DNA from: Candidatus Latescibacterota bacterium
Lineage (GTDB): Bacteria; Latescibacterota; UBA2968
Reading direction: 5' to 3'
NCBI GenBank assembly: GCA_965208125.1
Contig: OZ242320.1
Location: 2,784,001-2,848,000, forward strand
DNA: 64,000 nt
In this document: piece by piece, positions 1,295 to 45,678 of the stretch
How positions within the stretch are numbered: the stretch's first letter is position 1
How the letters are laid out: the number at the start of each line of letters is the position of its first letter
The notes under the pieces: generated by a model
The model's input: only the letters and a program-made list of their open reading frames with translations
What the model was told of the DNA's origin: nothing
Database searches by the model: none
Translations under genes and position numbers: made by a program

Positions 1295-1319
1295 TTGTGG
1301 AGCGTGGTGGGGATAGTGA

Positions 1320-4136: not shown

Positions 4137-4182
4137 AACACACTCCGGGGAAGAGGCGACGGAATTGCGTTAAAGGTCTGGT

Positions 4183-4212
4183 ATTATAATGCGATGGGGG
4201 GCAGATTGTCAA
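4183..4212 (-). promoter_or_regulatory. sigma70-type promoter for ppk1
   Basis: Minus strand TTGACA-N18-TATAAT about 50 nt upstream of the ppk1 start. Confidence 0.75.
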
Positions 4213-4232
4213 ATAAAAACGGCGATCTTGAG

Positions 4233-4274
4233 GAAAAGGTCGGATGGGCAAAAATCCATCCGACCTTTTCTTTT
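4233..4274. terminator. Strong hairpin with U-tracts possible on both strands
   Basis: GAAAAGGTCGGATGG-gcaaaaat-CCATCCGACCTTTTC, a perfect 15-bp inverted repeat. Confidence 0.7.
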
Positions 4275-4325
4275 GAGAAGAGAGTTAGCGGGAAGAATCC
4301 CCGAAGAAAGGATGAAATGGCGTAT

Positions 4326-4391
4326 TTGTAACAAAAATGTCACGTTTTTGTGACCAAAGCGTAACCGTTTTGGAGGCGATTTGTAACATTA
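4326..4391 (+). promoter_or_regulatory. Pho-box-like array (OmpR/PhoB-type 11-bp direct repeats)
   Basis: GTNAC cores at 4328, 4339, 4350, 4361 and 4383, all in 11-bp phase, upstream of porin-pst genes. Confidence 0.8.
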
Positions 4392-4447
4392 TAGCGATAT
4401 CTTATCGCGGAGAACGTCGTTTATTCACCAATTCGGAGGGAGAGCAC

Positions 4448-5408: not shown

Positions 5409-5447
5409 TTATCACATAAATGTCGTGTTTTTGTCACATGTGTAACG
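5409..5447 (+). promoter_or_regulatory. Pho-box-like repeats upstream of pstS
   Basis: ATCAC/GTCGT/GTCAC at 5411, 5422, 5433 (11-bp phase) plus GTAAC at 5442. Confidence 0.65.
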
Positions 5448-5498
5448 CGATATAGGTTTATTTTTTGTATGCTATCACACTACGCCAAGGGAGATTGA

Positions 5499-6476
5499 AT
5501 GACCAGATTTATTTTTATGATTGCATGTATGGCTGTTTTGATACCGGCTACAGCTCAGGCACAACAAGATTCGCCTGTTTCCGCGTATCAAAAAGTGAGT
5601 GGGATTTCCGGAAGTGCCAATAGCATTGGCTCCGATACGATGAATAATTTGATGACGCTCTGGTTGGAAGGCTTTCGCAAGTACTATCCCAGTGTAACTA
5701 TTCAGGTTGAGGGCAAGGGATCGAGCACGGCGCCTCCCGCACTGATCGAAGGCACCGCGCAATTTGGGCCTATGTCGCGCCCGATGAAGGCTTCGGAAAT
5801 TGACAAGTTTGAAAAGCATTTTGGATATCCCCCTACAGTGTTGCGAACCTCGTTGGATGCACTGGCTATTTTTGTCAATAAAGATAACCCAATTAATGGG
5901 TTGACTTTGCAGCAGGTAGATGCGATTTTTTCCAAGACGCGACGCGGTGAGTACAGGGAAAATGTTACGAGATGGGGACAGTTGGGTCTGGGAGACGATT
6001 GGAAAAATGCCGCATTCAGCCTTTATGGTCGCAATTCCGCGTCGGGCACTTATGGGTTCTTCAAAGATCACGCGCTGTTTAAGGGCGATTTCAAAGATGA
6101 AGTAAAAGAGCAGCCCGGGTCTGCTTCGGTTGTACAGGGTGTGGCCGAAGACAGGTACAGCATTGGTTATAGTGGCATTGGTTACAAGACCTCTGGCGTG
6201 CGTGTCGTACCTCTGGCGCTGGAAACTGGCGAACCCTTTAGAGAGGGTACGATAGAAAATGTGATCGATGGATCTTATCCTCTGGGGCGTTTTTTGTATT
6301 TGTACATCAACAAGGTGCCCAATAAACCACTCGATCCGCTGGTGAGAGAATTTTGTAAATTTATTTTTTCTAAAGAAGGGCAAGAGATTGTCGTTAAAGA
6401 TGGCTATATGCCCGTGCCCTATCAGGTGGTTAAAGAGGAACTCGAGAAGTTACAGTTACCCATCCAAACACCCTAA
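5499..6476 (+). CDS. pstS: Phosphate ABC transporter substrate-binding protein
   Basis: GSDTM, GKGSSTAPPAL, GRNSASGTYGFF motifs; signal peptide. Confidence 0.95.
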   Translation: MTRFIFMIACMAVLIPATAQAQQDSPVSAYQKVSGISGSANSIGSDTMNNLMTLWLEGFRKYYPSVTIQVEGKGSSTAPPALIEGTAQFGPMSRPMKASEIDKFEKHFGYPPTVLRTSLDALAIFVNKDNPINGLTLQQVDAIFSKTRRGEYRENVTRWGQLGLGDDWKNAAFSLYGRNSASGTYGFFKDHALFKGDFKDEVKEQPGSASVVQGVAEDRYSIGYSGIGYKTSGVRVVPLALETGEPFREGTIENVIDGSYPLGRFLYLYINKVPNKPLDPLVREFCKFIFSKEGQEIVVKDGYMPVPYQVVKEELEKLQLPIQTP

Positions 6477-6661
6477 CTGCCAGCGGTGAGACGTTAGAGG
6501 GCCAGCCAACTTCCATCCCAGAGGCGAGAGAAAGCCCCAGCCCCTGTTTCTCACCTCTTATCTATAGCAATCGTCACGCCGGCAGGATTTAATCCGGCGT
6601 CCAGCTTCTACATTACTGCATAGCTAAAACATACTGGATTGCGGCTAAACACCATACCGCG

Positions 6662-8945: not shown

Positions 8946-10553
8946 ATGGATGTGAAAAATTTTTGGAAAACAGGTGTGCCATTTATCTGGTTGACCGGTA
9001 GCGCGCTGGCGCTTTGTTTGCTTATGATTACAGGGCTGATCGCGCTGGTTATGTACAATGGCACCGGATTTTTCTGGCCCTCGGATATCGAAGCAGTGAT
9101 ACTCAAAGATGGTCGGAAAGCGATGGGGCAGCGGTGGGGCAAACAGGAGATTCCAGCATCGCATCGAACGGGATCCGGGCTATTTCGCATTCAGCTCAAA
9201 GTGGGCAATCGCGATGTGTATAGCAGCGATTTTCAATGGATAGATGAATCGGATATTCAATCGACGGACTATCCCGTAGATGCGGTGGTTTTTGAGCGGC
9301 GCGAGTGGGGCAATTTTTACGGGTTTATCGAAGCTCTGTACGAAGGTGAAACCCAGATGTCGAATACATGGGATGTGCTGCAAGCACAATTGGATAATAC
9401 CCGGCAACGACACGAACAGATTCGGCGAATTGAAAAAGATGCGATTGGCGACTTAAATCGGCAAATTGAAAATCTGCGACTAAAAAAACGCGAGATAGAA
9501 TTGGGTGGTGGAAATGCCGATGAAGTGGATGCGATTGATCGAGAGAACCGAACCTATTGGGAAGCTTATGAACAATTGGCTGACCAACTGGCGCAATTGC
9601 GTGCAGCCAACGAGACCTACCGCATAGATGTGCGGTTAATTGGCGGCGAGGTGCGGCAGATTGCCACGGCCGATATCGTGCGTGCTTATCGTCCCAATCG
9701 GCTGGGGATTTTGGGAAAAATGAGCGTTTATTTTGAGCGCGTTGGGGAATTTTTATTTGCTGAACCCCGTGAATCCAATACAGAAGGCGGGGTATTTCCC
9801 GCGATCTTTGGCACTGTTATGATGGTTTTTTTGATGAGTTTGGCGGCTGTGCCATTTGGTATCTTGGCCGCGCTCTATTTGCGCGAATACGCCAGGCAAG
9901 GTATTTTAGTTAGAGTGATTCGCATTGCGGTTAATAATCTGGCGGGTGTACCTTCTATTGTTTTTGGGATGTTTGGACTGGGATTTTTTGTTTATGGCAT
10001 TGGCGGAAGTATTGATCAACTCTTTTTTCCCGAAGCGTTGCCCACGCCCACATTTGGTACTGGCGGCATTTTGTGGGCTTCGTTGACCCTGGCATTGCTG
10101 ACAGTGCCGGTGATGATCGTTTCTGCTGAAGAAGCCCTTTCTGCCGTGCCGAGCGATGTGCGTGCCGGGTCGCTGGCTCTGGGGGCGACCAAGTTGCAGA
10201 CCATTTTGCGCGTGGTTTTGCCCGGCGCGCTGCCGGGTATTCTCACAGGCATTATTCTCGTGATTGCGCGCGGTGCTGGCGAAGTGGCTCCGCTGATGAT
10301 TACTGGCGTTGTGAAATTGGCTCCTGCGTTGCCCATGGATGGTATCTGGCCCTTTTTTCACCTGGAACGCAAGTTTATGCATCTGGGGTTTCACATTTAC
10401 GATGTGGGTTTCCAGTCGCCCAATGTCGAGGCGGCTCGTCCCATGGTATATACGACGACTTTATTGCTGATGGGAATTGTACTGGCTCTGAATCTGGTGG
10501 CTATTCTGGTTCGCAATCGGCTTCGCAAGCGCGTTGGTGGTGCGACGTTTTGA
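8946..10553 (+). CDS. pstA: Phosphate ABC transporter permease PstA
   Basis: PRESNTEGGVFPAIFGT, NLAGVPSIVFG, ARGAGEVAPL motifs. Confidence 0.95.
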   Translation: MDVKNFWKTGVPFIWLTGSALALCLLMITGLIALVMYNGTGFFWPSDIEAVILKDGRKAMGQRWGKQEIPASHRTGSGLFRIQLKVGNRDVYSSDFQWIDESDIQSTDYPVDAVVFERREWGNFYGFIEALYEGETQMSNTWDVLQAQLDNTRQRHEQIRRIEKDAIGDLNRQIENLRLKKREIELGGGNADEVDAIDRENRTYWEAYEQLADQLAQLRAANETYRIDVRLIGGEVRQIATADIVRAYRPNRLGILGKMSVYFERVGEFLFAEPRESNTEGGVFPAIFGTVMMVFLMSLAAVPFGILAALYLREYARQGILVRVIRIAVNNLAGVPSIVFGMFGLGFFVYGIGGSIDQLFFPEALPTPTFGTGGILWASLTLALLTVPVMIVSAEEALSAVPSDVRAGSLALGATKLQTILRVVLPGALPGILTGIILVIARGAGEVAPLMITGVVKLAPALPMDGIWPFFHLERKFMHLGFHIYDVGFQSPNVEAARPMVYTTTLLLMGIVLALNLVAILVRNRLRKRVGGATF

Positions 10554-10576
10554 ATAGGTGAGAGAAAGGAATCGCG

Positions 10577-11389
10577 ATGGCTGAAGCAGAACTTGCAAAT
10601 ACACGGTCCGATGAAGCAATTGTTCCAGATATTCAGAATCCCATTGTCACCATATCTAATCTGAGCCTGTATTACGGCGAGACGCAGGCCCTTTTTGACA
10701 TTGACATGCAGATTCCCGAGTATCAGGTAACGGCTTTGATCGGTCCTTCGGGGTGCGGGAAGTCAACGCTGTTGCGGTGCATGAATAGGCTGAACGATTT
10801 GATCGATTCGGTGCGTATCGAGGGTGCGGTTGAAATTGATAATGACGACATTTACAGTTCTGGTTATGATGTGATTTCGTTGCGCCGCCGGGTCGGGATG
10901 GTATTTCAAAAGTCCAATCCTTTTCCCAAGTCGATCTATGAGAATCTCGTTTACGGTTTGCGAATTGCAGGTGAAAATCGGCGGGCGGTGCTCAATGAGG
11001 TGGTGGAACGCAGTTTGCAGGCTGCCGCGCTTTGGGATGAAGTAAAAGACCGGCTCGATGACAGTGCTCTGGGGCTTTCGGGAGGACAACAGCAGAGGTT
11101 GTGCATTGCGCGTGCAATTGCCGTTGAGCCTGCGGTGATCTTGATGGATGAACCCTGTTCAGCACTGGATCCAATTGCGACAGGGCGCATTGAGGAGACA
11201 ATAGAAGAGCTCAAAAAGCAATATACGATTGTAATTGTAACACACAATATGCAACAAGCGTCGCGCATTTCGGACTATACGGCGTTTTTCTATTTGGGGC
11301 GTTTGATTGAGATGGCCGAAACGAGTGAGATGTTTACCAATCCGCAGCTCAAACAAACCGAAGATTATGTGACGGGGCGGTTTGGCTAA
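10577..11389 (+). CDS. pstB: Phosphate ABC transporter ATP-binding protein
   Basis: [40 protein letters not shown]. Confidence 0.97.
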
Positions 11390-11400
11390 GCAGAGGAGTA

Positions 11401-12084
11401 ATGATTATGGAGCGTACTCTTGACCAGCATCTCGACCACCTCAAAGGTGAGTTGTTGAAGATGGGCAGTGCGGTGGAAGAGTCGATTGAACAGGCAGTAC
11501 AATCGCTTGTAGAACGCGACAATCACCTCGCCGATGTGGTTGAAGAGGGTGGGCATCACATTGACGATTGGGAAGTGGAGATAGAAGAAGAGTGTTTGAA
11601 GTTGCTGGCTGTGCAGCAACCGGTGGCTGGCGATTTGCGCCTGGTGGCGAGTATGATAAAGATCAATTACGATCTCGAGCGCATCAATGATCAGGCGGTG
11701 AATATCGCGCAGCGCGCCCGCTTGCTCAATCAGATGCCGCAATTGAAACCGCTGATCGATATTCCGCGGATGGCTGTGTTAGCACGGGGTATGGTCAGGG
11801 ATGCTTTAGATGCTTTTGTCAATCGCGACGTGGAATTGGCCAATAAGGTGCGTAAAATTGACGATACAATGGATGCGTTGCGCGATCAAATTTTTCGGGA
11901 GTTGTTGACGTACTTAAACACGGGTATGTCCGCGACTGTAGATCAGGCAATTTTGCTCATTCTCGTGTCCCGGCATTTGGAGCGCATAGGCGATCATTCA
12001 TCCAATATTGCCGAAAATGTCGTCTATCTCGTTCAGGGACGCATTGTGAGACATCAAAAGGAGGAATTGCGCGCAGAGGAGTAA
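11401..12084 (+). CDS. phoU: Phosphate signalling protein PhoU
   Basis: QPVAGDLR, DLERIND and HLERIGDH repeats; follows pstB. Confidence 0.95.
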   Translation: MIMERTLDQHLDHLKGELLKMGSAVEESIEQAVQSLVERDNHLADVVEEGGHHIDDWEVEIEEECLKLLAVQQPVAGDLRLVASMIKINYDLERINDQAVNIAQRARLLNQMPQLKPLIDIPRMAVLARGMVRDALDAFVNRDVELANKVRKIDDTMDALRDQIFRELLTYLNTGMSATVDQAILLILVSRHLERIGDHSSNIAENVVYLVQGRIVRHQKEELRAEE

Positions 12085-14926: not shown

Positions 14927-16018
14927 ATGGCTGGTCGTGATGTTTTTCAAGAGGCACTGACTCTGATTTCTCAGGGGGAAAAGGCCGCCTTATCGACTAT
15001 TGTATCGAGTAAGGGGTCTTTGCCGATGAGCAAAAAGGCCAAGATGCTCGTGCGTCCCGATGGCGTGATTATAGGTACGGTGGGCGGCGGTTGTTTGGAA
15101 GCCGATGTGTGGGCCGAAGCCCGTCATGTGATGGAAACCGAAGCACCGACGTTGCAGAAGTTTATTTTGACGGAGAAACACGCGGGCGAAAATGGCCTCA
15201 ATTGCGGTGGCAATGTCGAGATTTTTACCGAACCTCTGCTGCCCGATCGCGCAGATGATATGCTCGCCGAGATTGCGCGAGTTCGCAAAGTGCGCGGTTC
15301 GGCTGTGTTGGCGACACTGGTTTCGGGCGGCGATCAGGTGGGTGCGAAGTTACTGGTACATCCCGATGGTAGAACAGTGGGGAGCCTGGGCCATGATCTT
15401 GCCGAAGCCTGTGTGCGCGAAGAGGTGGCGGCTTTTGAGGCGATTCCGGAGAGTTTGCTCAAAGTTATAAAGATCGGCTCGGAACCCGTTGTGGTCTTTT
15501 TGGAATCTATTTGTCCCGAACCCACGCTGTTTTTGTTTGGTGGGGGGCATGTGTCCTATGCCATTGCACAGATTGCACATTCGGTCGGGTTTCGGATTGT
15601 GGTTATTGACGACCGGCCCATGTTTGCCAACAAAGAGCGGTTTCCCATGGCGAGTGAGACGCTGACGCTGGAGATGGAGACGGCTTTTGATCATCTAATT
15701 GTTGACGATTTGTCTTATGTGGTGGCTGTGACGCGGGGACACCAGCACGACAAGCCGGTCATTGAGCAGGCAATAAATACTCAGGCGGCGTATGTCGGTA
15801 TGATTGGCAGCCGTCGCAAGATCGCATTGATGTGGAAAGAGTTTGAGGCCAAAGGCATTCCGCGAGAAAAATTGGATGCGGTTCACGCGCCGATTGGATT
15901 GGATATCGGTGCAGATACGCCCGAAGAAATCGCCGTGAGTATTGTGTCAGAACTCATTCAGGTGCGCCGGTCACAAGGGAAACCCATTCACCAGGGTATG
16001 TCGCTGTCATCGGTGTGA
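14927..16018 (+). CDS. XdhC/CoxF-CoxI family molybdoenzyme maturation factor
   Basis: GTVGGGCLE, CGG, FGGGHV, YVGMIGSRRK, APIGLDIGADTPEEIAVSI. Confidence 0.92.
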   Translation: MAGRDVFQEALTLISQGEKAALSTIVSSKGSLPMSKKAKMLVRPDGVIIGTVGGGCLEADVWAEARHVMETEAPTLQKFILTEKHAGENGLNCGGNVEIFTEPLLPDRADDMLAEIARVRKVRGSAVLATLVSGGDQVGAKLLVHPDGRTVGSLGHDLAEACVREEVAAFEAIPESLLKVIKIGSEPVVVFLESICPEPTLFLFGGGHVSYAIAQIAHSVGFRIVVIDDRPMFANKERFPMASETLTLEMETAFDHLIVDDLSYVVAVTRGHQHDKPVIEQAINTQAAYVGMIGSRRKIALMWKEFEAKGIPREKLDAVHAPIGLDIGADTPEEIAVSIVSELIQVRRSQGKPIHQGMSLSSV

Positions 16019-16039
16019 AGTGAGAAGCATAAAGACGGA

Positions 16040-18319
16040 ATGGAGAGAGATCAGGCCCTGAAAAGTTTTTTCAAAATATGTTGTGGCGTGATGCTATCTA
16101 CAATTCTGACGTTGGCTTCGATGAGCGTGAGCACGGTTGGTATTGCGCTGGCAGCGGCGCCCTCGCAAAAGCCACGGCTGGGTAAAGTTAGCTTTGATCA
16201 AGTGATCGATGTGAACAATATCGCGATGTTTGTGACCAATCAGGGATCGTTTGCCTGGAATCTGACGACTGGATATTCGGGTCTTGAATTTCCCAAGGGC
16301 ACGTACGGGCAAACTGCGGTCTTTGCCGCGGGACCGTGGATTGCGGGCAAGGTCAATGGCGAGATTCGCGTGGCGATTGCCGAGTATTCATTTGAGTTTG
16401 CGCCCGGGCCTATTTTGCCCGATGGCACACCCGCTGACCCACAACTCGACCGCTATCGCGTGTATAAGATCAACAAAGGCGATGGTCCGGAAAATCCGGA
16501 TTACGCGCAGTGGCCGGTTGAAGACGGTGCGCCAGTTAATCCCGACGGTACGCCAATGGTGCTGGGTGATCAGACCCTGTGGGCGGTGTATAACGATGCC
16601 GATCCCGGCGTTCACGTCAATATGCAGACCGCGCCTTTGGGCATTGAAATACAGCAGACGACATTTGGGTTTGACCGCACAGATCCACTTGGCAATGTGG
16701 TATTCATCAAATTTTTAATCATCAACAAGGGTGGTAATACCATCGACAGCACGTATGTGTCGCTGTGGTCTGATCCCGATCTGGGGCAGTTAGATAACGA
16801 CCTGGTGGGTTGTGATGTGGAGACCAGCTTTGGGTTTTGTTATAACGGATCGAATACAGACTCGCAGTATGGTTCGTCACCTCCAGCCGTGGGGTATGAC
16901 TTTTTTAAGGGTCCGATTGGCGATGACGGTGTGGAATTGCCGATGACGTCGTTTAACAAATATATCAACGGTACCGATCCATACACCGCAGAACAGGTCT
17001 ATAACTATATGAAGGGCCTTGATCCAGATGGCGGTGTGGCTCTGCACACTGATCCGATTACGGGTCAGGTGAAGGCATTTATGGTCGATGGCGATCCGGT
17101 TGCGGGTACGGGCTGGCTTGACGAAAATCCGGCTGACCGGCGTTTGATGCTCACGGCGGGTCCATTTACCTTCGCACCTGGCGATACGCAGGAAGTGGTG
17201 GTGGGGATTATTATGGGTCAAGGTCAAGATCGTCTCACGTCGATTACGGCTGTGCGGGTTAACGATACGTTTGCACAATCGGCTTTTGATGCCGATTTTG
17301 TTGTATTTCCTCCGCCTCCGCCTCCGTCTCCTCCGACGCCTCCGCCCCCTCCGCCCCCACCTCCTGTTGGTATAAAGGATTGGGATATTCCATCGGGCGG
17401 GCGCTGGTACACCTGGGCAAATACCGATTGGGGGGCCGAAGGCTTCGGTGGTGCAATGACGGGCGATATTGCCCATCAATGGTTTGGCCCGACGAGTGTG
17501 CCACCTTCGCGCTTGGTCAATGTGGAATTGCGATTTACCAGTGTGATTGAAGATGAAGGCGAAGATCAGTACAAACCCATTGACTTGACCAATCCCAATG
17601 TGTCGTGGGGATATCGGTATTTGCGCAGCGCAGGTGCTCCTGCTCCTGCACCGGCAGATCAGACGACTACAAAATCACCTTATGACTGGAGCAATTATAT
17701 CATCAATACATCGGGTCCCGGTGAATATGTGTATCAGGAGCGCAATCCAATCGCGCTTTCGGCCTGGGATGTTGAAAATAACCGCCGTCTCGAAGTGGGT
17801 TGGCTGGAAAACAATCAGCCCGGCGGCCTGGTCAATGGTGCGTATGGTCCGGCCTATTACAACGATGTGAGCAATCTGGCGACCAGTGGACCGCGCGAGT
17901 GGCTGTTCATTTTTGATCGGGATTATACCGAGCCGGATGATGATTCCAATTTGGCGGAGTTGTCACAGGGCTTGATCAACGACAACCCGGCGCCGCCCAT
18001 TATGTATATCATTTTTGCTGCGCGCCGTATCGCGGATCGGTTTCCGCAGGATGGCGATTCGTTTTTGATTCTGGTCAATCGCGTCAACGACACCAATCCC
18101 GGCGATTTTAATGGCGATGGCACGATTAACTTTTCCGATTTTCTTTTGTTCATTGTGGCTTTTGGTACAGGTTCAGGAGATGCAGGTTTCGATGCTCAGA
18201 TGGATCTCAATGGCGATGGCATGATTGACTTTTCCGATTTTCTGATCTTTGTCGGTCATTATGGGAGTGGTACCTCTGGTTCGAAGGCCGCGCTGCCACT
18301 GCCCTTTCCCTATAGGTAA
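16040..18319 (+). CDS. Secreted protein, paralogue of 21455..24577, with poly-Pro linker and C-terminal EF-hand/dockerin-like tail
   Basis: Signal peptide; two blocks nearly identical to the downstream gene; PPPPPPSPPTPPPPPPPP linker; duplicated DxNGDGxIxFSDFL Ca-binding motifs; start could be 16091. Confidence 0.8.
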   Translation: MERDQALKSFFKICCGVMLSTILTLASMSVSTVGIALAAAPSQKPRLGKVSFDQVIDVNNIAMFVTNQGSFAWNLTTGYSGLEFPKGTYGQTAVFAAGPWIAGKVNGEIRVAIAEYSFEFAPGPILPDGTPADPQLDRYRVYKINKGDGPENPDYAQWPVEDGAPVNPDGTPMVLGDQTLWAVYNDADPGVHVNMQTAPLGIEIQQTTFGFDRTDPLGNVVFIKFLIINKGGNTIDSTYVSLWSDPDLGQLDNDLVGCDVETSFGFCYNGSNTDSQYGSSPPAVGYDFFKGPIGDDGVELPMTSFNKYINGTDPYTAEQVYNYMKGLDPDGGVALHTDPITGQVKAFMVDGDPVAGTGWLDENPADRRLMLTAGPFTFAPGDTQEVVVGIIMGQGQDRLTSITAVRVNDTFAQSAFDADFVVFPPPPPPSPPTPPPPPPPPPVGIKDWDIPSGGRWYTWANTDWGAEGFGGAMTGDIAHQWFGPTSVPPSRLVNVELRFTSVIEDEGEDQYKPIDLTNPNVSWGYRYLRSAGAPAPAPADQTTTKSPYDWSNYIINTSGPGEYVYQERNPIALSAWDVENNRRLEVGWLENNQPGGLVNGAYGPAYYNDVSNLATSGPREWLFIFDRDYTEPDDDSNLAELSQGLINDNPAPPIMYIIFAARRIADRFPQDGDSFLILVNRVNDTNPGDFNGDGTINFSDFLLFIVAFGTGSGDAGFDAQMDLNGDGMIDFSDFLIFVGHYGSGTSGSKAALPLPFPYR
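16103..17300 (+). repeat. Long direct repeat A, copy 1 (about 1.2 kb)
   Basis: Co-linear with 21473..22667; mostly synonymous differences and one 3-nt indel by eye. Confidence 0.9.
17309..17365 (+). repeat. CCN-codon low-complexity tract (poly-proline)
   Basis: cctccgcctccgcctccgtctcctccgacgcctccgccccctccgcccccacctcct. Confidence 0.9.
17369..18079 (+). repeat. Long direct repeat B, copy 1 (about 0.7 kb)
   Basis: Co-linear with 23462..24181; near-identical framework interrupted by divergent segments. Confidence 0.85.
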
Positions 18320-18550
18320 AAATTGGAACAACAAGTATGGAGGCCATTATGTCATCTGGTTGTGAGTTGTCTTTATGAGAGATTTATGCAAGTGAGGTTC
18401 GGCAAGAACTTTCACAATGGTTTACTGTCGGGGGAGAACAAGGAGGTGATGCAAGCGACATAGTTGTAAACGATTTACGTGAGGGGGGAAGAATGAGAGG
18501 CGCGTGTCTTTAAGTCTGGTTTTCGAAATTATTTCAGAAGGGAGTTAACC

Positions 18551-21439
18551 ATGACAAGATGGATAATCGCACTTGTTGCGATGTCGTTTTTATCCGCATC
18601 GGCGATGGCCGGGGTGACGGGTAAAATTGTGGGTCAGGTTGTTGACAAAGATGACGGTGGTAGTTTGCCCGGTGCCAATGTGGTGGTTCTGGGCTTGCAC
18701 AGTGTCTTTGGTGCGACATCCGATACCGAAGGTAATTTTGTGATTTTGAATGTGCCAGCAGGCACTTTTGACGTAAAATGCAGCTTTATCGGGTATCAAG
18801 ACGTGGTGCTCAAGGGCATCAAGGTGTTACCCGATTTGACTACGGAAGTAGATTTTGTGCTTACAGCACAGGCTCTGGAAGGCGAAACTATTGAAGTGGT
18901 GGCGGAGCGTCCGCTGGTGCAGAAAGACAAGACCAGCTCGATGCGCCTCGTAACCAGCGAAGAACTCGAGTATATGCCGGTTCGCGGGTATGCAGCGGCC
19001 ACGTCCTTGCAGGCGGGTGTGACGAATCGGAACGGCTCTCTTTACATACGCGGTGGGCGGTTTTCAGAAGTTGACTACATTGTCGATGGCGTATCGCAGA
19101 AGAATTTGCAGTATGGCTCATCGACCACGGCCCTGAGCAATGGTGCTATAGATCAGGTATCCGTGATTGTGGGTGGGTTTGAAGCGGAGTATGGGCGCGT
19201 GATGTCGGGCGTTGTCAAGGTGGTGACGCGCGAAGGCGGGCAGAACTATTCGGGGTCTGTGGAACACATCACCGATGAGTGGAATGACCGCAGTTGGGCC
19301 GGTGCGCCCTCTTATGGGTATAACACTACCGAAGCGACACTGGGTGGTCCACTCATTCCCGGGACGAACGGGCCTTCGTTTTTTGTCTCTGGAGACCGCG
19401 TCGATCGCCTCGACCGCAGTCCGCGCTGGGGTGTGGAAGCCCACGAGTGGGAAAAAGACCTTTTGCCAAAGGAAGATTACGATCTGCTCAGCGAGGGCAT
19501 ATTGCCGCATTATACGCTCGACAGCTGGAGCTGGCAGGGCAAACTGGCGTATCGATTGTCCGACGAAATCGATCTGAAAGCAGGGATTATAGGCTCAAAA
19601 TATGATCGCTTGAGCTATAGTCACTCATATCGCTATAATTTGCGGCATGCGCCGCGTGCCAAAAGCAATAACTATTCGGCGTTTGCTCGCGTGACCTACA
19701 CGCTCGGAGCAAAGACCTTCTTCACCTTGCAAACAAGTATGTTCGATCAGAATTTCAAGGCGGGTGACGGGGTTCATTTCGACAATTTGCACGACTATGC
19801 CCGTCCCCAGGGCAATCCGCGTTATGACGCGGAAAGTTTGTTTGCCCGCGGCGATGTGGATTCCACCGAGATTACGCGGACAACGGAAACCATCAATGAT
19901 CGCTCTATAACGTATTTTGAAGGCGATGAAGGGCGCATATATAATAGCTTTACGCAAAGCAGTTCATTTTATCTCACGCCTATCGACTTTGATTTGACCA
20001 GTCAGGTCAGCCGCAATCACCAGTTCAAGCTCGGTTTTGACGTGCAGATGCATCGGTTGCGTTATTATCGTCATCTGGTCCCCAGTTTGATCTTTCGCGG
20101 TCCATTCGTCAGCACAGACGACAGGGGTGGCTTTCAGGATGTAGATCGCTACGGGTATGATTACAACTGGAATAAACAGGGCATTGAGCCTCTGGATTCT
20201 ACCCGCGACGCGCAAAAAGAACCCATTTTGGCCTCGTTTTACGTGCAGGACAAGATGGAATACGACGGTTTGATCATCAATGCGGGCGTGCGATACGATT
20301 ATTTGAATGCGAGTACCGATGTGCTGGCGAATGAAGGCGTGCCACTGGGTGGCGATTCGACATTGGATCCATCGGATCTGGCTGGCAACAGCGTGTATCA
20401 CAAGATCAGCCCGCGTCTGGGCGTTGGATTTCCCGTTACAGATAAGACCGTGTTTCACATGAACTACGGTATTTTTTATCAGCAACCCAAGCTGGAAGAC
20501 CTGTATGTTGGTCTGGATTATCTGGAATACAAAGCGCCACTGGGGGGATATTATTACGCTTTTGGCAATCCGAATCTCAGACCGGAAAAAACCACGGCTT
20601 ATGAAGTGGGTGTGGTGCAGCAGGTGGGTGACCATGCCAGTGTCGATGTGACGGCGTATTACAAAGCCGTGGAAAACCTCGTCCAGGTGACGACAATTCC
20701 GTCTGATCCCGTGGCTTTTGCCTCGTTCCGCAACAACGACTACGGAACCATTAAGGGGCTGGACTTTGGTTTGCTAATGCGTCGCATAGGGCGCACAACA
20801 GCACGCATCTCTTATTCACTGGCTTATGCGACGGGCACGGGATCATCGCCACAAACCCAGCGGCGGATCGCCTGGAGCTTCCAACCCGGCGTGACCGAGC
20901 CGCCCAAATCGACCTCACCGCTCGACTTTGATCAACGCCACAAAATTTCGGCATCGATCGACTATCGCTTTGTAGATAAAGACGGCCCGAGGTTCCTGGG
21001 CGGTCAGCCGCTGTCCAATGCCGGGATCAATGTGTTGTTCACAGCCGGGAGTGGATTCCCCTATACCCCCACGTTTACGTTTAATGAAGTGACTACAGGG
21101 GCTTCGGCGTCACGTCCTTCGGGACCGGTGAATTCCAGCTATGGTCCCTGGACATTCAGGACTGATGTGAAGGCGAATAAGCGTTTCAAAATTATAGGAC
21201 TTCAGGGTGACATATACGTATGGGTGCTCAATTTGCTCAACCGCGCCAACGCAACCAGTCCCGTGTATTCGAGCACGGGTAGCCCAATGACTTCGGGCTG
21301 GTTGAATACAGCTGAAGGCCGCAAATTTGTGGAGCGCTTTGGTCAACTGGGCGAAGACAAATACAAGCTCAAAGAGAACAGCCCATTCAACTTTGGCACG
21401 CCGCGGCAGGTTCGCTTCGGACTCGCGCTCAGCTTCTAA
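18551..21439 (+). CDS. TonB-dependent receptor with N-terminal carboxypeptidase-regulatory-like domain
   Basis: GKIVGQVVD...LPGANV, YIRGGR plug motif, GGFEAEYG, GNPNLRPEKT, C-terminal PRQVRFGLALSF. Confidence 0.92.
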   Translation: MTRWIIALVAMSFLSASAMAGVTGKIVGQVVDKDDGGSLPGANVVVLGLHSVFGATSDTEGNFVILNVPAGTFDVKCSFIGYQDVVLKGIKVLPDLTTEVDFVLTAQALEGETIEVVAERPLVQKDKTSSMRLVTSEELEYMPVRGYAAATSLQAGVTNRNGSLYIRGGRFSEVDYIVDGVSQKNLQYGSSTTALSNGAIDQVSVIVGGFEAEYGRVMSGVVKVVTREGGQNYSGSVEHITDEWNDRSWAGAPSYGYNTTEATLGGPLIPGTNGPSFFVSGDRVDRLDRSPRWGVEAHEWEKDLLPKEDYDLLSEGILPHYTLDSWSWQGKLAYRLSDEIDLKAGIIGSKYDRLSYSHSYRYNLRHAPRAKSNNYSAFARVTYTLGAKTFFTLQTSMFDQNFKAGDGVHFDNLHDYARPQGNPRYDAESLFARGDVDSTEITRTTETINDRSITYFEGDEGRIYNSFTQSSSFYLTPIDFDLTSQVSRNHQFKLGFDVQMHRLRYYRHLVPSLIFRGPFVSTDDRGGFQDVDRYGYDYNWNKQGIEPLDSTRDAQKEPILASFYVQDKMEYDGLIINAGVRYDYLNASTDVLANEGVPLGGDSTLDPSDLAGNSVYHKISPRLGVGFPVTDKTVFHMNYGIFYQQPKLEDLYVGLDYLEYKAPLGGYYYAFGNPNLRPEKTTAYEVGVVQQVGDHASVDVTAYYKAVENLVQVTTIPSDPVAFASFRNNDYGTIKGLDFGLLMRRIGRTTARISYSLAYATGTGSSPQTQRRIAWSFQPGVTEPPKSTSPLDFDQRHKISASIDYRFVDKDGPRFLGGQPLSNAGINVLFTAGSGFPYTPTFTFNEVTTGASASRPSGPVNSSYGPWTFRTDVKANKRFKIIGLQGDIYVWVLNLLNRANATSPVYSSTGSPMTSGWLNTAEGRKFVERFGQLGEDKYKLKENSPFNFGTPRQVRFGLALSF

Positions 21440-21454
21440 ATGGGAGGTTAGAAC

Positions 21455-24400
21455 ATGAAAAGCTTTTTGAATATTCTGACGCTGGCTTTGATGAGCGTGA
21501 GCATGGCTGGCATTGCGCTGGCTGTATCGCCCTCGCAAAAGCCGCGATTGGGTAAAATTAGCAATGATCAAGTGATTGATGTGAACAATATCTCAATGTT
21601 TGTGACCAACCAGGGATCATTTGCCTGGGATCTGGCGACCGGGGCTTCGGGTCTTGAATATCCCAAGGGCACGGGCAAAACCGCGGTATTTGCCTCCGGT
21701 CCGTGGATTGCGGGGAAGGTCAATGGAGAGATTCGGGTGGCGATTGCCGAGTATTCATTTGAGTATGCGCCCGGGCCGATTTTGCCCGATGGCACACCCG
21801 CCGATCCGCAACTCGACCGCTATCGGGTGTATAAGATCAGCAGAGGTGATGGCCCGGAAAACCCGGATTATGCGCAGTGGCCGGTTGAAGACGGCGCGCC
21901 GGTCAATCCCGACGGTACGCCGATGGTGCTGGGCGATCAGACCCTGTGGGCGGTGTATAACGATGCCGATCCCGGCGTCCACGCCAATATGCAGACCGCA
22001 CCTTTGGGCGTTGAAATACAGCAGACGACATTTGCGTTCGACCGCACAGGTCCTCTTGGCAATGTGGTGTTCATCAAATTTTTGATCATCAACAAGGGTG
22101 GCAATACCATCGATAGCACGTATGTGTCGCTGTGGTCTGATCCCGATCTGGGTCAGTTCGATAACGACCTGGTGGGCTGCGATGTTGAGACCAGCTTTGG
22201 GTTTTGTTATAACGGGTCAAATGTAGATGCGCAGTACGGTTCGTCACCTCCAGTCGTGGGATATGACTTTTTCAAGGGTCCGATTGGCGATGACGGTGTG
22301 GAATTGCCGATGACGTCGTTTAACAAATATATCAACGGCACGGATCCTCAAACCGCAGAAGAGACCTTTAATTATATGAAGGGCCTTGATCCGGATGGCG
22401 GCGTTGCCGATCACACCGATCCAATTACAGGTCAGGTGAAGGCATTTATGGTCGATGGAGATCCGGTTACGGGCGCGGGCTGGCTTGACGAAAATCCGGC
22501 TGATCGCCGCTTTATGCTCACGGCGGGTCCGTTTACCTTTGCGCCCGGCGATACGCAGGAAGTGGTGGGCGCCATTATTATAGGTCAAGGTCAAGATCGT
22601 CTCACGTCGATTACAGCCGCGCGTTTTAACGATACATTTGCACAATCGGCTTTTGATGCCAATTTTGAATTGCCATCGCCTCCGCCTGCACCCAAAGTAT
22701 CCGTGGGGATAACAGGGGATCACGGAGGCAATGGTAGAATTCAGTTGACCTGGGGTAGTGACTCAGAAGTTGCCTCGGGCGATTATGCATTCGAAGGTTA
22801 TAACGTGTACCAGGGCGAGTCGGTTGCTGGTCCCTGGAGGCGTCTTGTGACTTATGACGTGGTCAATGGCTCGGCCATTATTTTTGACAGTCAGTTCGAT
22901 GAAGGTGCCGGTGTGGTGATCAACTCGCCCGTGCAATTTGGCGGCGACTCGGGTATTCGGCGCTTTATTGAACTCACCGAGGATAAGGTTTTGGGTGGTC
23001 GTCTGGTGACGGGTAAAACCTATTATTTTGCAGTGACGGCCTATTCGTTGAATGAGAGCAGGTCGCCAAAAACGCTCGAGACATCCATCACACCTCTGGC
23101 CGATGGGCGCATGACGTTTAAGCCCCTTTCGGATGAGATGATTCCGGCCAATGGCATTGTGCCGCGCGGACCCACTGCGGGTACGCGCTTCAATACCGTG
23201 GGTGTGGATAGTGTTGTTGAACACACATCGGGTGTAAGCGATGGTATTGTGGCTGTGGAGGTGGTTGACGATACACGGGTCACGGGCGCGTCTTACGAAG
23301 TGCGCTTCCGCGATACCGAGGCCGGAACGGTTTGGGATCTGATCAATCTGTCGAGTGGTCAGGCCGTGCTTTCAGATATGCAGCAGCACGCAAATATAGA
23401 TGATGCGATTACCAATCCAATTGTCGAGGGTTTGCTCGTGCGCGTTACCGGTCCTCCCCTTGGCATGAAAGATTGGGATATTCCATCGGGTGAGCGGTGG
23501 ATGACGTGGTTTCATACCAGTCCCTATTTGGCTGGTTTTTCTACTGAAGGCTTCGGAGGTGCGATAACGGGCGATGTTGCCCATAGTTGGTTTGGTCCCA
23601 CGAGCGTGTCACCTTCGCAGTTGGTCAATGTGGAATTGCGATTTACCAGTGTGATTGAGGATGATGGCGAAGATCAGTACAAACCCCTCGACCTGACCAA
23701 TCCCAATGTGTCGTGGGGATATCGGTATTTGCGCGCCGCGGGCAGACCTGCACCTGCTCCCGAAGAACTAACCCTGTCCCATGTGCCTTATGACTGGAGT
23801 GATTACATCGTCAATACAGAAGGTCCCGGTGTTTATGTGTATCAAGACCGGAGGCCCATTGCACTGTCTGCATGGGATGTTGAAAATAATCGGCGCCTTG
23901 AAGTGGGCTGGCTGGAAAACAATCTGGCCGGTGGCCTGGTCAATGGAGCCTGGGGACCGCCACTTGGTGACGATGTGCCCCATACGTTTGTCGCCCGTGA
24001 GTGGCTGTTCATTTTTGATCGGGATTATACCGAGCGGAACGATGATTCCAATTTGGCGGAGTTGTCTCAGGGCTTGATCAACGATGCGCCGGCACCGCCC
24101 ATTATGTATATCCTTTTTGTTAATCGCCGCACGGCAGATCGTTTCCCGCAGGATGGCGATTCATTTTTGATGATCGCCAATAAAATCAATACCCCCAACG
24201 ATGTGTTTTTATTTAACACGCAGGGGACTCTCCGCGGTGATCAGGAGTTGGCGGTGGAGGATTTGACAAAAATTCTGGCGGTGCCCAATCCGTATCTGGG
24301 GCGTTCGTCTTATGAATTTAACTCTCTTGCACGCCAGATGCGTTTTACCAATCTTCCCGCGCAGTGTACGATCCGAATTTTCAGTCTGTCGGGCGATCTG

Positions 24401-24577
24401 GTGCGAACGATTGAGCACAATAACGGTCTGTCGTTTGATACCTGGGATCTAAAAACAGATCAGGGCGTGCTGGTTGCCAGCGGCATTTATATCGCGCATT
24501 TTGACGCGCCAAATATCGGTACGCATTTTATCAAGTGCGCGGTGTTCATGGAAGCTGAGACGCTGAACACATTTTAA
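21455..24577 (+). CDS. Secreted protein with FnIII-like middle region and T9SS-type C-terminal sorting domain
   Basis: Signal peptide; IQLTW...FEGYNVY...YYFAVTAY; tail AVPNPY...FTNLP...IRIFSLSGDLVRTI...WDLKT...VASGIYI. Confidence 0.85.
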   Translation: MKSFLNILTLALMSVSMAGIALAVSPSQKPRLGKISNDQVIDVNNISMFVTNQGSFAWDLATGASGLEYPKGTGKTAVFASGPWIAGKVNGEIRVAIAEYSFEYAPGPILPDGTPADPQLDRYRVYKISRGDGPENPDYAQWPVEDGAPVNPDGTPMVLGDQTLWAVYNDADPGVHANMQTAPLGVEIQQTTFAFDRTGPLGNVVFIKFLIINKGGNTIDSTYVSLWSDPDLGQFDNDLVGCDVETSFGFCYNGSNVDAQYGSSPPVVGYDFFKGPIGDDGVELPMTSFNKYINGTDPQTAEETFNYMKGLDPDGGVADHTDPITGQVKAFMVDGDPVTGAGWLDENPADRRFMLTAGPFTFAPGDTQEVVGAIIIGQGQDRLTSITAARFNDTFAQSAFDANFELPSPPPAPKVSVGITGDHGGNGRIQLTWGSDSEVASGDYAFEGYNVYQGESVAGPWRRLVTYDVVNGSAIIFDSQFDEGAGVVINSPVQFGGDSGIRRFIELTEDKVLGGRLVTGKTYYFAVTAYSLNESRSPKTLETSITPLADGRMTFKPLSDEMIPANGIVPRGPTAGTRFNTVGVDSVVEHTSGVSDGIVAVEVVDDTRVTGASYEVRFRDTEAGTVWDLINLSSGQAVLSDMQQHANIDDAITNPIVEGLLVRVTGPPLGMKDWDIPSGERWMTWFHTSPYLAGFSTEGFGGAITGDVAHSWFGPTSVSPSQLVNVELRFTSVIEDDGEDQYKPLDLTNPNVSWGYRYLRAAGRPAPAPEELTLSHVPYDWSDYIVNTEGPGVYVYQDRRPIALSAWDVENNRRLEVGWLENNLAGGLVNGAWGPPLGDDVPHTFVAREWLFIFDRDYTERNDDSNLAELSQGLINDAPAPPIMYILFVNRRTADRFPQDGDSFLMIANKINTPNDVFLFNTQGTLRGDQELAVEDLTKILAVPNPYLGRSSYEFNSLARQMRFTNLPAQCTIRIFSLSGDLVRTIEHNNGLSFDTWDLKTDQGVLVASGIYIAHFDAPNIGTHFIKCAVFMEAETLNTF
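21473..22667 (+). repeat. Long direct repeat A, copy 2
   Basis: Matches 16103..17300. Confidence 0.9.
23462..24181 (+). repeat. Long direct repeat B, copy 2
   Basis: Matches 17369..18079. Confidence 0.85.
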
Positions 24578-24603
24578 CGAACCGCTGAATGGAGGAATAA
24601 CTT

Positions 24604-25659
24604 ATGTTCAGGCAGATGATTTTTCTGTTTGCCGCGCTGGCATTGATCGTTCAGGATGCCCGTGCAGGCGATGAGAGCCGTATCGGCACAGCCGCAGCAC
24701 AAGAGTTGCGCATTCCAATTGGTTCGCGCGGTACAGCACTTGGAGGCGCCATACTGGCTCATGTAAAAGGTGCGGAGGCATTGCAGTGGAATCCTTCGGG
24801 ATTGGTATTTGGAACGCACAAACGCGAAGTCTTGTTTTCATATCTGGATTATATTGCAGATATGAATGTGAACTATTTTGCGATTACCACGCGTCTGCGC
24901 GATGATATTTCGGTGGGGATCAGTGCCCGTGCGTTAGCAGTGGGCGATATTATTGTGACGACCGAGGAATCGCCCGAAGGTACGGGTGAGATACTCTCTC
25001 CGAGGTTTTCGTGTGTGACATTTACGTATTCGCAATTGTTGACAGATCGCGTGTCGTTTGGCACTACGATTAAATATATCCACGAGGCGATTAAGCGAGA
25101 GGTTGCCAATGGCCTGGCGTTTGATTTTGGTTTCCAGTACAAAACCGCACTCAAAGGTTTAACGCTGGGTATTGCTATGCGCAACTATGGTCCAGACATG
25201 CGGTTTGATGGTCCGGATCTGGATCGGGTGGTGAGATTGCAAGACGCGATTCCAGAGGCTGATCCCCAAGCCGGGTCGCGCACTTTCCGCACGTCACTGG
25301 CATCTGCGGAGTTGCCCACGTCCATAGAAATCGGTTTTTCCTATGCTTTCTATGAAGACGCGCTGGGCAAAGCTGCTTTTTCTGCGACCTTCCGCAATAA
25401 CAATCTGGCGACTGACGAGTATCAGGCTGGCGTTGAGTATTCGATGAAGCAAATTCTTCAGTTGCGCGGAGGGTATGTGACGTCTCCAACCGGTGATGCC
25501 CTGCCCAACGGGTTTAAGAAGGAATATATTCTCGGTCCGACGTTTGGGTTTGGTCTCAATGTGCCTATGGGCAATATGGCTTTTCAAGTGGATTATGCCT
25601 ATGGCAGAACTGAGTACTTTCAGGATAATCACTGGGTGACTGTGGGGCTTGGGTTTTAG
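24604..25659 (+). CDS. PorV/PorQ family outer-membrane beta-barrel
   Basis: GTAAAQELRIPIGSRGTALGG, WNPSGL, FDFGFQY, C-terminal Phe. Confidence 0.85.
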   Translation: MFRQMIFLFAALALIVQDARAGDESRIGTAAAQELRIPIGSRGTALGGAILAHVKGAEALQWNPSGLVFGTHKREVLFSYLDYIADMNVNYFAITTRLRDDISVGISARALAVGDIIVTTEESPEGTGEILSPRFSCVTFTYSQLLTDRVSFGTTIKYIHEAIKREVANGLAFDFGFQYKTALKGLTLGIAMRNYGPDMRFDGPDLDRVVRLQDAIPEADPQAGSRTFRTSLASAELPTSIEIGFSYAFYEDALGKAAFSATFRNNNLATDEYQAGVEYSMKQILQLRGGYVTSPTGDALPNGFKKEYILGPTFGFGLNVPMGNMAFQVDYAYGRTEYFQDNHWVTVGLGF

Positions 25660-25730
25660 AAGTGTGAAGTATGAAGTGTGAAGTATGAAGGGTGGCCTTC
25701 TCTTCTAACTTCTCACTTCTTTCTTCTCAT
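25659..25730. repeat. Heptamer tandem repeat with a partially complementary pyrimidine tract
   Basis: (GAAGTGT GAAGTAT)x2 GAAGGGT followed by CTTCT-containing repeats. Confidence 0.75.
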
Positions 25731-25740
25731 AGGTGTATTT

Positions 25741-25785
25741 AACCGCCTGCATTGGTTTTTATTACCAATGTCAGGCGGTTTTTTT
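25741..25785 (+). terminator. Rho-independent terminator of the receptor operon
   Basis: AACCGCCTG-CATTGGT...ACCAATG-T-CAGGCGGTT plus T-run. Confidence 0.8.
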
Positions 25786-25842
25786 CTTCTTTGAAAATCC
25801 TATTTATATAAAAAACAATAAGATAGGGTCTGAAGAGTGTTT

Positions 25843-25858
25843 TGGCACAGATATTGCA
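25843..25858 (+). promoter_or_regulatory. sigma54 (-24/-12) promoter of pspA
   Basis: TGGCAC-AGATA-TTGCA consensus preceded by an AT-rich tract. Confidence 0.85.
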
Positions 25859-25910
25859 AAGAGATAGATGTGAATTTGATCGATAACCAATAACCAGAAG
25901 GAGATATACC

Positions 25911-26579
25911 ATGGGTGCCTTTTCAAGGATAAGCAATGTGGTTCGCGCTGAGGTTGACGATGTTCTGAATAAGATAGAGGATCCAAAGAAGATGGTGCGG
26001 CAGATGGTGCGGGATATGGAGGACGCGCTGGATGATGCGGTGGTTGCTGTGGCACAGGCGATGGCCAGTGAGAAGTTGCTGGCGCGTCGGATTGCACAGA
26101 AGCGGGAAGAGTCGGCTTTGTGGGCGCGCAAGGCAGAGGATGCTATGGATGCTGGTGAAGAGGAACTGGCGCGCAAAGCACTATTTCAGAAGGTGGCGGT
26201 TGATGAAGCGGTCAATACCCTGCAAAAAGCGCGGGGGGAAGCGGAAGAGGTGACGGCGACCCTGAAGCAGCGACTCGCAGAACTGAAGGCCAAATTGGCG
26301 TCTGCCCGCGCACGGCAGAGCACGCTGGCGATTCGCAGACAGGTGGTGCAGGAGGTGCGACAGGATGCGCGTGTAGAAGCTTATGATCGGTTTGTTCGGG
26401 ATGTGGCGCGCGAGGAAGCGACTGCTGAAGTCTATGCCGAGATGGTGGATGATGCACAGTTGCAAGAAGAGTTTGATCAACTGGAACGAAAGCAGCGCGT
26501 TGAAGCCGAGATGCAGGTGTTGAAGGAGAAAGTGAAACAAAGTGCGCGCCAGAATGATGAATCTGAAGAGGAGAAGTAA
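25911..26579 (+). CDS. pspA: PspA/IM30 family protein
   Basis: MGAFSRI...KIEDPKKMVRQMVRDME...GEEELARKAL coiled coil; strong RBS. Confidence 0.9.
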   Translation: MGAFSRISNVVRAEVDDVLNKIEDPKKMVRQMVRDMEDALDDAVVAVAQAMASEKLLARRIAQKREESALWARKAEDAMDAGEEELARKALFQKVAVDEAVNTLQKARGEAEEVTATLKQRLAELKAKLASARARQSTLAIRRQVVQEVRQDARVEAYDRFVRDVAREEATAEVYAEMVDDAQLQEEFDQLERKQRVEAEMQVLKEKVKQSARQNDESEEEK

Positions 26580-45600: not shown

Positions 45601-45602
45601 GG

Positions 45603-45678
45603 CTAATCACCTCTTCTTTGATGAGGACGGCCTCTATTTGTCCCACGCGCCAGTTGTCTGGCAATCAGACGGGTTCAA
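45603..45678 (-). pseudogene. Remnant N-terminus of a HEPN-like toxin gene
   Basis: TTG-NPSD, frameshift, then IARQLARGTNRGRPHQ and a stop; overlaps the end of the upstream ORF. Confidence 0.45.

Follow-up and report, generated by a model that had tools for sequence, protein, structure and literature searches.

Two stably inherited types of an undescribed domain in paralogous surface proteins of uncultured marine Latescibacterota

A stretch of 64,000 nucleotides (nt) from Candidatus Latescibacterota (contig OZ242320.1, positions 2,784,001 to 2,848,000), here called the window, encodes two paralogous cell-surface proteins, P0001 and P0003. They belong to an uncharacterised protein family of uncultured marine Latescibacterota with a fixed core: a domain A, followed by a beta-rich spacer that we call "mid", and a domain B. 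Our work reveals that two discrete forms of B, types 1 and 2, are stably inherited in the genus, and that type 1 has been remodelled mostly in three coil segments. We see in B a conserved, undescribed domain with a polymorphism of two forms, and neither a hypervariable nor a programmed system. The reading that we consider best, with a probability of about 0.5, is a specificity switch in a substrate-capture protein. All coordinates are positions in the window, and G000 designates its own genome, a single contig of 5.75 Mb.

The short paralogue P0001 is encoded at 16040..18319; this gene and all other features of the locus are located on the + strand. From the given ATG, the protein has 759 amino acids (aa), but its true start is probably M18 at 16091, because the database form has 742 aa. 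A signal peptide is followed by domain A (16103..17311, aa 22-424, 89% identity to aa 7-414 of P0003), a poly-proline linker, domain B of the ancestral type 2 (17360..18109, aa 441-690), and a type I dockerin at the C-terminus (18098..18274, aa 687-745; Dockerin_1 33.9 bits, cut-off 22.9). The long paralogue P0003 (21455..24577, 1040 aa) has a signal peptide, domain A (21542..22684, aa 30-410), the all-beta mid spacer (22694..23452, aa 414-666), domain B of the derived type 1 (23453..24214, aa 667-920), and a C-terminal domain (CTD) of the kind known from type IX secretion systems (T9SS), to which profile matches are weak (24230..24574, aa 926-1040). Relative to P0003, P0001 thus carries the linker in place of the spacer and the dockerin in place of the tail. 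The whole genome contains exactly two copies each of A and B. The open reading frames (ORFs) and all the peptides quoted in a first-pass annotation of this DNA were found as written.

Comparison of the two copies by BLASTP gave 363 identical residues out of 409 (89%, one gap) for repeat A and 191 out of 265 (72%, 12 gap positions) for repeat B. According to the method of Nei and Gojobori, repeat A (403 codons, nucleotide identity 0.888) has 83.3 synonymous and 52.7 non-synonymous differences and a ratio of non-synonymous to synonymous substitutions per site (dN/dS, or omega) of 0.16, and the earlier statement that this repeat differs mostly at synonymous sites holds. For repeat B (243 codons, nucleotide identity 0.790), the corresponding values are 66.8, 86.2 and 0.30. 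In windows of 30 nt, the identity in B dips to 0.27-0.57 at three places; outside of them, it is 0.63-0.97, with at least 0.80 in 32 of 38 windows. In P0001, these three segments are located at 17405..17440 (aa 456-467, WYTWANTDWGAE, without the five-residue insertion of type 1), 17627..17677 (aa 530-546, SAGAPAPAPADQTTTKS) and 17843..17893 (aa 602-618, YGPAYYNDVSNLATSGP). Their counterparts in P0003 are 23498..23548 (aa 682-698, with the type-1-specific insertion of five residues at 689-693), 23735..23785 (aa 761-777) and 23951..23998 (aa 833-848, with a deletion of two residues as compared to type 2). Within the segments, 27 of the 45 aligned codons differ between P0001 and P0003, in addition to seven indel codons (+5 and -2), and 32 of 199 codons differ in the framework of B. 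The three best windows of 15 residues hold 31 of the 64 differing positions in B, a value that was reached in none of 5000 permutations; in the same test, 785 of 2000 permutations matched repeat A, i.e. there is no clustering. The identity windows and the permutation test thus confirm the abrupt short switches that had been noticed in repeat B. The accompanying description of the framework DNA as almost identical was overstated: the longest exact run has 41 nt in B (65 nt in A), and the framework of B has a dS of about 0.46-0.53 between the genome's own two copies. Synonymous divergence is patchy along both repeats, with a proportion of synonymous differences (pS) of 0.00-0.84 in windows of 15 codons. 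Compensated frameshifts were considered as a cause of the peptide switches and rejected: a free nucleotide alignment shows true divergence of the DNA, and since the gaps total 15 nt and 6 nt and the segments truly diverge, frameshifts are ruled out.

The two types are not a peculiarity of this genome. The comparison covered 21 genomes of the genus, i.e. G000 and the 20 others that were searched, with 23 gene copies in all. Type 1 is present in 8 of the 21 long genes, P0003 included, and type 2 in the other 13 long genes as well as in both short paralogues. Mosaic loops among related alleles, which the first-pass annotation had proposed to look for, were absent, as none of the 23 copies has segments of mixed type. 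The two types have no residue in common at 31 columns, 21 of which are in the three segments, and the motifs specific for type 1 are kept in all eight type-1 copies. In G000, the B domain of the long protein is of type 1 and that of the dockerin-tailed short paralogue of type 2; the earlier view of two versions of B in this genome, one per paralogue, with differences in short segments is correct, and these segments are three in number and coil. Near-identical sequences were found in sequencing runs labelled as sponge, marine and coral metagenomes.

By this comparison, type 2 is the ancestral and type 1 the derived form, because the divergent species hold type 2: it is present in the four most divergent species of the genus, and two of these, the outgroups G016 and G001, show it at 68 and 73, respectively, of 83 diagnostic nucleotide sites. 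All these sites are located within aa 418-913; the first eight are in the mid region, which P0001 lacks, and P0001 shows the type-2 state at 65 sites, the type-1 state at seven and neither at 11. In the tree of B, type 1 forms a single clade (support 100) that is nested within a radiation of close species, and its stem, at 0.22 substitutions per site, exceeds every other inner branch in length several-fold.

The orthologues largely refute one explanation of the pattern, intragenomic gene conversion, in which the framework would have been homogenised and the segments would be unconverted remnants. The patchy synonymous divergence and the exact run of 65 nt in A would fit such a process. However, among species without a second copy, the long genes differ in the same three segments, and the dS of the B framework between the genome's own copies (0.53) is no lower than that between the short copy and the type-1 genes of others (0.40-0.50). 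We therefore regard gene conversion as very improbable. Even less can be said for programmed diversification by a diversity-generating retroelement (DGR) or by cassette switching. As in the targets of DGRs and in domains with loops resembling complementarity-determining regions (CDRs), a conserved scaffold carries differences concentrated in a few short stretches, here near the C-terminus. This resemblance is superficial: unlike those systems, B has two fixed forms, stable across species, with segments that are conserved within each. Moreover, the 5.75-Mb genome contains no match to RVT_1, for which a control search was positive in 3 of 14 genomes, the repeats are direct rather than inverted, and neither a template nor further copies of A or B were found. 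As the genome holds only two copies of each domain, there are no silent cassettes; with neither a reverse transcriptase nor a donor cassette present, programmed diversification is excluded for all practical purposes.

The type of B is not linked to its neighbours. None of the 204 variable columns of the receptor and none of the 51 variable columns of the PorV-family protein is fixed between the B types, and the trees of the flanking genes mix the types. On the trees of the receptor and of xdhC, type 1 requires three changes, at least two of which are forced by well-supported branches; G007 (type 1) is paired with G009 (type 2) with a support of 97. In the tree of A, one clade (95) unites the long gene of G007 with five type-2 genes and another one (99) unites four type-1 genes with the long gene of G013, and in the tree of mid, type 1 is a clade (97). 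Of the 83 diagnostic sites, 10 have the type-2 state in the long gene of G007, where they form small patches, and 10 have the type-1 state in that of G013. Moreover, both types can coexist in one metagenomic run (X4): there, the depth of the dominant relative, about 155, falls to 7.8 over the type-1 B, and a minor contig (depth 6.8) bears type 1 with 10 differences in 394 nt. In X18, one contig links mid to a type-2 B. Switching between the B copies within the genome was considered for this contig and rejected: it was read as the type-2 long gene of a relative because it is only about 90% identical to the window.

The short paralogue was found in only one of the 20 other genomes of the genus, G006 (G006:C1:1714300-1727200, at about 9506-11722 of this locus, - strand). 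Both short copies are under purifying selection when compared with each other (dN/dS 0.041/0.27 in A and 0.044/0.28 in the framework of B). G006 is not a close sister of G000 in the receptor tree. The dS of A is 0.27 between the short copies of the two genomes and 0.40 between their long genes, and since the short copies are closer to each other than the long ones, the short gene may have been transferred within the genus or lost repeatedly.

The claim of CDR-like hypervariable loops did not survive. Between the short gene of G000 and the long gene of G016, only 7 of 45 codons differ in the type-2 segments (dN 0.12, dS 1.4), which are under purifying selection. Across the family, the variability of the segments does not exceed that of the framework (entropy 1.33 vs. 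1.49, p 0.19), as judged from those 47 of the 54 other rows of alignment A2 in which B is less than 65% identical to the query; the seven closer rows were excluded. The insertion of type 1 corresponds to a gap in more than 90% of these 47 rows. Segments 1 and 3 are in part among the best-conserved motifs of the family, RW.TW and NGA.GP, with G165 and P169 being invariant. Of the 20 positions most often replaced off the stem of type 1, only six are within the segments and 14 outside; T893, S711, A894 and N890 lead this list.

Of the changes that parsimony assigns to the stem of type 1, 53 are non-synonymous and 32 synonymous, and the resulting omega is 0.50, as compared to 0.20 elsewhere (Fisher p 9e-5). 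Amino acid change was thus clearly accelerated on the branch that separates the B types, in partial support of the first-pass reading. On the stem, omega reaches 0.62 in the segments and 0.41 in the framework, as compared to 0.39 and 0.16, respectively, on the other branches. Inside the type-1 clade, the framework has a dN/dS of about 0.13, which indicates that constraint was back after the stem. A "hot spot" set of positions that was selected post hoc had an omega of 0.91; this set was mis-picked, as it contains the invariant W712 in place of S711.

Two explanations other than a change of specificity can be derived from these data, and we consider both to be unlikely. According to the first, type 1 would be a tolerated, equivalent variant that arose once by relaxed constraint and drift, perhaps during the redundancy provided by the short paralogue, and that was spread by recombination or lineage sorting. 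An omega that never exceeds 1 on the stem, not even in the segments, is what this idea predicts; moreover, the clade of the short paralogues arises at about the depth of type 1, and the segments are coil modelled with lower confidence (67-80, mean 87.4). Yet the remodelled parts adjoin the motifs RW.TW and NGA.GP with their invariant residues, which makes neutrality unlikely, and the change affected all three segments jointly, with conservation thereafter in all eight type-1 genes. In addition, seven of the eight type-1 genomes lack the short paralogue in the search made with this query, and three of these are assemblies of 1-5 contigs. According to the second explanation, the types would be kept as surface epitopes, i.e. 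as targets of phages, predators or recognition by a sponge host, and would serve evasion rather than substrate specificity. That two discrete types are common to several species while the flanks recombine, that both occur in one metagenomic run, that neither the receptor nor the PorV-family protein co-varies with them, and that scattered positions are nearly unconstrained (in the mis-picked post hoc set mentioned above) all agree with such a dimorphism. However, there are two types rather than many, the type-2 segments are strongly conserved over a dS of 1.4, unlike the target of an arms race, the most-replaced positions are mainly outside the segments, and no phage or host partner is known.

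The structure models provide a frame for both domains. The model of full-length P0003 has a mean predicted local distance difference test score (pLDDT) of 85.5. In this model, domain A matches the non-catalytic N-terminal domains of enzymes of the glycoside hydrolase (GH) families GH15, GH116 and GH94 as well as of dextran dextrinase (Z 17-20, 235-273 residues aligned, root-mean-square deviation (rmsd) 3.0-4.7, sequence identity 7-14%). Among the matches are 9ju0 (Z 20.0, 256 residues aligned, rmsd 3.3), 1ug9 (Z 19.8, 236 residues aligned, rmsd 3.0) and 1lf6 (Z 19.4). Most of the matching ranges are within model residues 26-461, and a few reach 484-547. Domain A thus has a beta super-sandwich fold like the N-terminal domains of GH15 glucoamylases and glucodextranases and of the GH116 and GH94 enzymes. 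Unlike in these enzymes, the model contains no (alpha/alpha)6 catalytic barrel after the super-sandwich: only the fold of the N-domain is common, and the rest is mostly beta with a few short helices and without a long helical stretch.

Domain B, as modelled, is a previously undescribed domain without a clear match in the PDB. It has about 250 aa, is rich in beta-strands and aromatic residues, and was modelled on its own with a pLDDT of 87.4 and a predicted template modelling score (pTM) of 0.89; blocks of ten residues over the segments, which are coil, score 67-80. Foldseek found no match to the B model in the PDB at E<=0.001, with weak jelly-roll-like hits. Among 48161 chains compared by VIA-align, FlgK came first with a Z of no more than 4.5 (85 residues aligned, rmsd 2.9), and the best score in the ESM Atlas, 0.79 to unnamed clusters, is below a meaningful level. 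A profile search of the PDB sequences returned a weak match to the PorZ tail and chance-level hits. No Pfam family exceeded its cut-off on A, mid or B, sub-threshold matches in P0003 being DUF7141 at aa 602-647 and FlgD_ig at 969-1012, and NCBIfam gave no hits on the three parts, its matches being confined to the C-terminal tails. R757, Q797, R814, E821 and Y858 are invariant in B, and E849 (E183) is nearly so. Several of the conserved polar residues seem to be located at strand ends beside segments 2 and 3. If strands 128-136 and 138-142 of the B model are counted as one kinked strand, all segments would fall into odd-numbered strand connections, a parity that would also take in S711 and T893/A894. 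In the class-level loci that hold all six parts, B is the best-conserved one in three of four cases (51-60% identity vs. 29-45%).

P0003 is encoded between two genes for outer membrane proteins. Upstream, with a gap of 15 nt, is the gene for P0002 (18551..21439, 962 aa), a TonB-dependent receptor with a CarboxypepD_reg domain, a plug (Plug 30.3 bits, cut-off 23.9) and a beta-barrel (TonB_dep_Rec_b-barrel 90.6 bits, cut-off 27). Downstream, after 26 nt, follows the gene for an outer membrane barrel of 351 aa (24604..25659) that belongs to the PorV/PorQ family (NF033709, 170.4 bits, cut-off 90) and scores under the cut-offs of the equivalog models for PorV, PorQ and PorV2. The tail of P0003 matches Por_Secre_tail weakly (19.6 bits, cut-off 23) as well as the PorZ tail (E 6e-6; E 0.0099 for the CTD of PorZ in 5m11), and its homologues carry the NCBI name "T9SS type A sorting domain-containing". 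The T9SS core is represented in the genome by SprA (505.6 bits for the best stretch, 641.3 with its neighbours, cut-off 200). For P0001, the dockerin on the one hand and five cohesin matches in four reading frames of the genome on the other provide both putative partners for a dockerin-cohesin display.

The operon-like arrangement of receptor, long gene and barrel gene, which we call the triad, is conserved up to the class level. In all 20 other genomes of the genus, the order is xdhC, receptor, long gene and PorV-family gene, mostly followed by pspA, with one of the loci being cut off by a contig end. The triad is also kept in all eight loci at the family and class level. In G000 itself, 18 PorV-family genes score over the cut-off and 32 plug domains are present; 15 of the PorV-family genes are located 5.1-6.6 kb downstream of a receptor gene on the same strand, with one cargo gene between them. 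This gives 15 triads, in one of which the cargo is split into two frames. Receptors have 987-1118 aa, cargo proteins 694-1040 aa, and the barrels 313-374 aa; examples are C1:5140395-5147052, C1:2141323-2147836 and C1:1092197-1098702, and the triad of the window spans 18551-25659. A CTD profile built from the family of P0003 matches 14 of the 15 cargo proteins, and A and B are present in the triad of the window only. Eight other cargo proteins were scanned and had no Pfam family at E<=0.01, except for a weak match to CHU_C in one of them. Nine triads have an extra gene for a protein of about 235-270 aa upstream, and the two that were scanned match OMP_b-brl, one of them weakly. PorV-family genes were found in all 41 genomes of the phylum, with 4-29 per genome. 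In one locus of a class-level relative (L055, G054:C202:1-12767), a second, more divergent unit of receptor, CTD cargo and PorV-like barrel is located at about 133-4627, directly upstream of a triad whose cargo has the order A-mid-B-CTD; triads can therefore stand in tandem.

A model of the complex of P0003 residues 667-1040 with the PorV-family protein reached a score of 0.85, with 0.00 for the best control. Of 80 solved complexes, 58 reached this mark, as did 2 of 110 mismatched pairs. The runs agree in at least 79% of the contacts, and the partners have a pLDDT of at least 81. The confident interface is confined to residues 941-1035 of P0003, and the model is uninformative on B. As for expression, contigs from two RNA libraries cover the stretch from the receptor to the PorV-family gene with about 92-95% identity; these are contigs of relatives and no proof of transcription of this locus, and stretches that they leave uncovered carry no information. 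A scan of 15800-26200 for promoters and terminators stayed within the expectation from shuffled sequences (15 vs. 10.9 and 14 vs. 11.3).

Polysaccharide utilisation loci (PULs) of the SusC/SusD type with surface glycan-binding proteins are known in Bacteroidota, and the triad resembles them in several respects: a receptor with an N-terminal CarboxypepD_reg domain is encoded beside a large, surface-exposed protein, the unit is multi-copy, with its 15 triads in G000, and the fold of domain A is associated with carbohydrate enzymes. Unlike in those loci, the partner is a T9SS-type cargo followed by a PorV-family barrel rather than a lipoprotein, and glycan binding by the triad is putative. There is no SusC/SusD pair either: no SusD-type Pfam family was found among the 13 neighbouring proteins scanned, and no SusC/RagA model was among the 16 NCBIfam hits of the receptor at E<=0.01. 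The second comparison is with T9SS cargo proteins that are attached to cognate PorV-like barrels, such as type B CTDs with PorP/SprF and PorZ with PorQ; PorP/SprF and PorQ barrels have been described as being encoded beside their cargo (PMC10202324). Here too, the barrel gene adjoins that of the putative cargo, and the complex model places the CTD of the cargo on the barrel. In contrast, the barrel fits the general PorV/PorQ model and not PorP/SprF, the CTD weakly resembles type A and PorZ tails, the phylum is Latescibacterota instead of Bacteroidota, and a TonB-dependent receptor is coupled to the pair, for which no precedent was found in the literature searched. Likewise, no description of the family or of the triad was found in that literature, which was partially covered, and term look-ups in PMC4454575 and PMC12993501 returned neither the domain family nor the triad.

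Taken together, the long protein most likely serves to capture a substrate beside a TonB-dependent receptor, and type 1 would be a form of changed specificity. In this specificity switch, the long protein would be exported by the T9SS, and its CTD would hold it on the cognate PorV-like barrel. Sitting beside its TonB-dependent receptor, it would capture the substrate to be imported, which is probably a glycan. The segments remodelled in type 1 would flank the conserved polar and aromatic core of B and alter its recognition. G000 would then display two specificities, the new one at the transporter and that of the ancestral type on a scaffold of cohesins. The difference in B itself would have been made by ordinary mutation and spread between species by recombination.

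Several observations weigh against this switch. G006 has type 2 on both of its genes, and the paralogue is therefore not there to supply a second type. The stem omega is below 1 in every partition, which fits relaxed constraint followed by re-stabilisation; for this reason, positive selection is not demonstrated. Synonymous change on the stem is also more frequent in the segments (dS 0.41) than in the framework (0.13), and this excess agrees better with old alleles whose framework has recombined, or with multi-nucleotide replacement, than with a simple burst of point substitutions. A McDonald-Kreitman-like count (33 non-synonymous to 5 synonymous fixed differences vs. 151 to 225 polymorphic ones, p 2e-8) is biased because the groups were defined by their protein difference and synonymous sites are saturated within the groups. 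PorV-type complexes have already been solved, and the pass of the complex model may reflect likeness to these structures. Finally, the binding of a ligand by B is putative, and strand parity is the one, weak hint that the three segments may form one face.

A search with B yielded 239 proteins, and together with the three of the window, 242 were stored. Among these, A and B co-occur and the C-terminal anchor varies; the order A-mid-B-CTD is the most common one (127 proteins, 11 of which have A in two pieces), and many of the other stored proteins are fragment-like. In L061 (G056:C19:1-16000, about 5426-7606, - strand), the mid spacer is absent from a variant long protein, in which A passes directly into a shorter B of about 200 aa that is very divergent (27% identity); the gene of this variant is still located between those for the receptor and the PorV-family protein. 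Outside the locus, at 6662-8935 (+ strand) of the window, a permease domain of the phosphate-ABC type (BPD_transp_1) has a WD40-like beta-propeller fused to its N-terminal side, and the surrounding pst-like cluster also encodes another permease, an ATPase and PhoU. The region 44374-47549 (- strand) has a GC content of 0.37-0.46, with its trough at 44-48 kb, as compared to about 0.51 elsewhere; it encodes an AAA_21/AAA_15 ATPase (44374-45546) and a protein of 485 aa (46092-47549) without a Pfam family, and may be an acquired defence-type island.

In a wider and more tentative view, the locus would be an undescribed PUL-like module of the Latescibacterota, in which a T9SS-exported capture partner sits on its own PorV-like barrel, B is a recognition (or catalytic) module of new fold, the switch of type is a polymorphism shared across marine, partly sponge-associated species, and the ancestral type is kept via the dockerin. 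Even if the specificity switch is not the correct reading, a clean two-allele polymorphism of a surface protein shared by closely related species remains. If it is correct, the two types are a natural pair of variants, a common scaffold with three remodelled segments, that can be used to find out what this phylum-wide domain recognises. The combination of receptor, T9SS cargo and PorV-like barrel may then be the Latescibacterota counterpart of the SusC/SusD systems, and the finding would bear on how uncultured marine and sponge-associated bacteria take up polymers.

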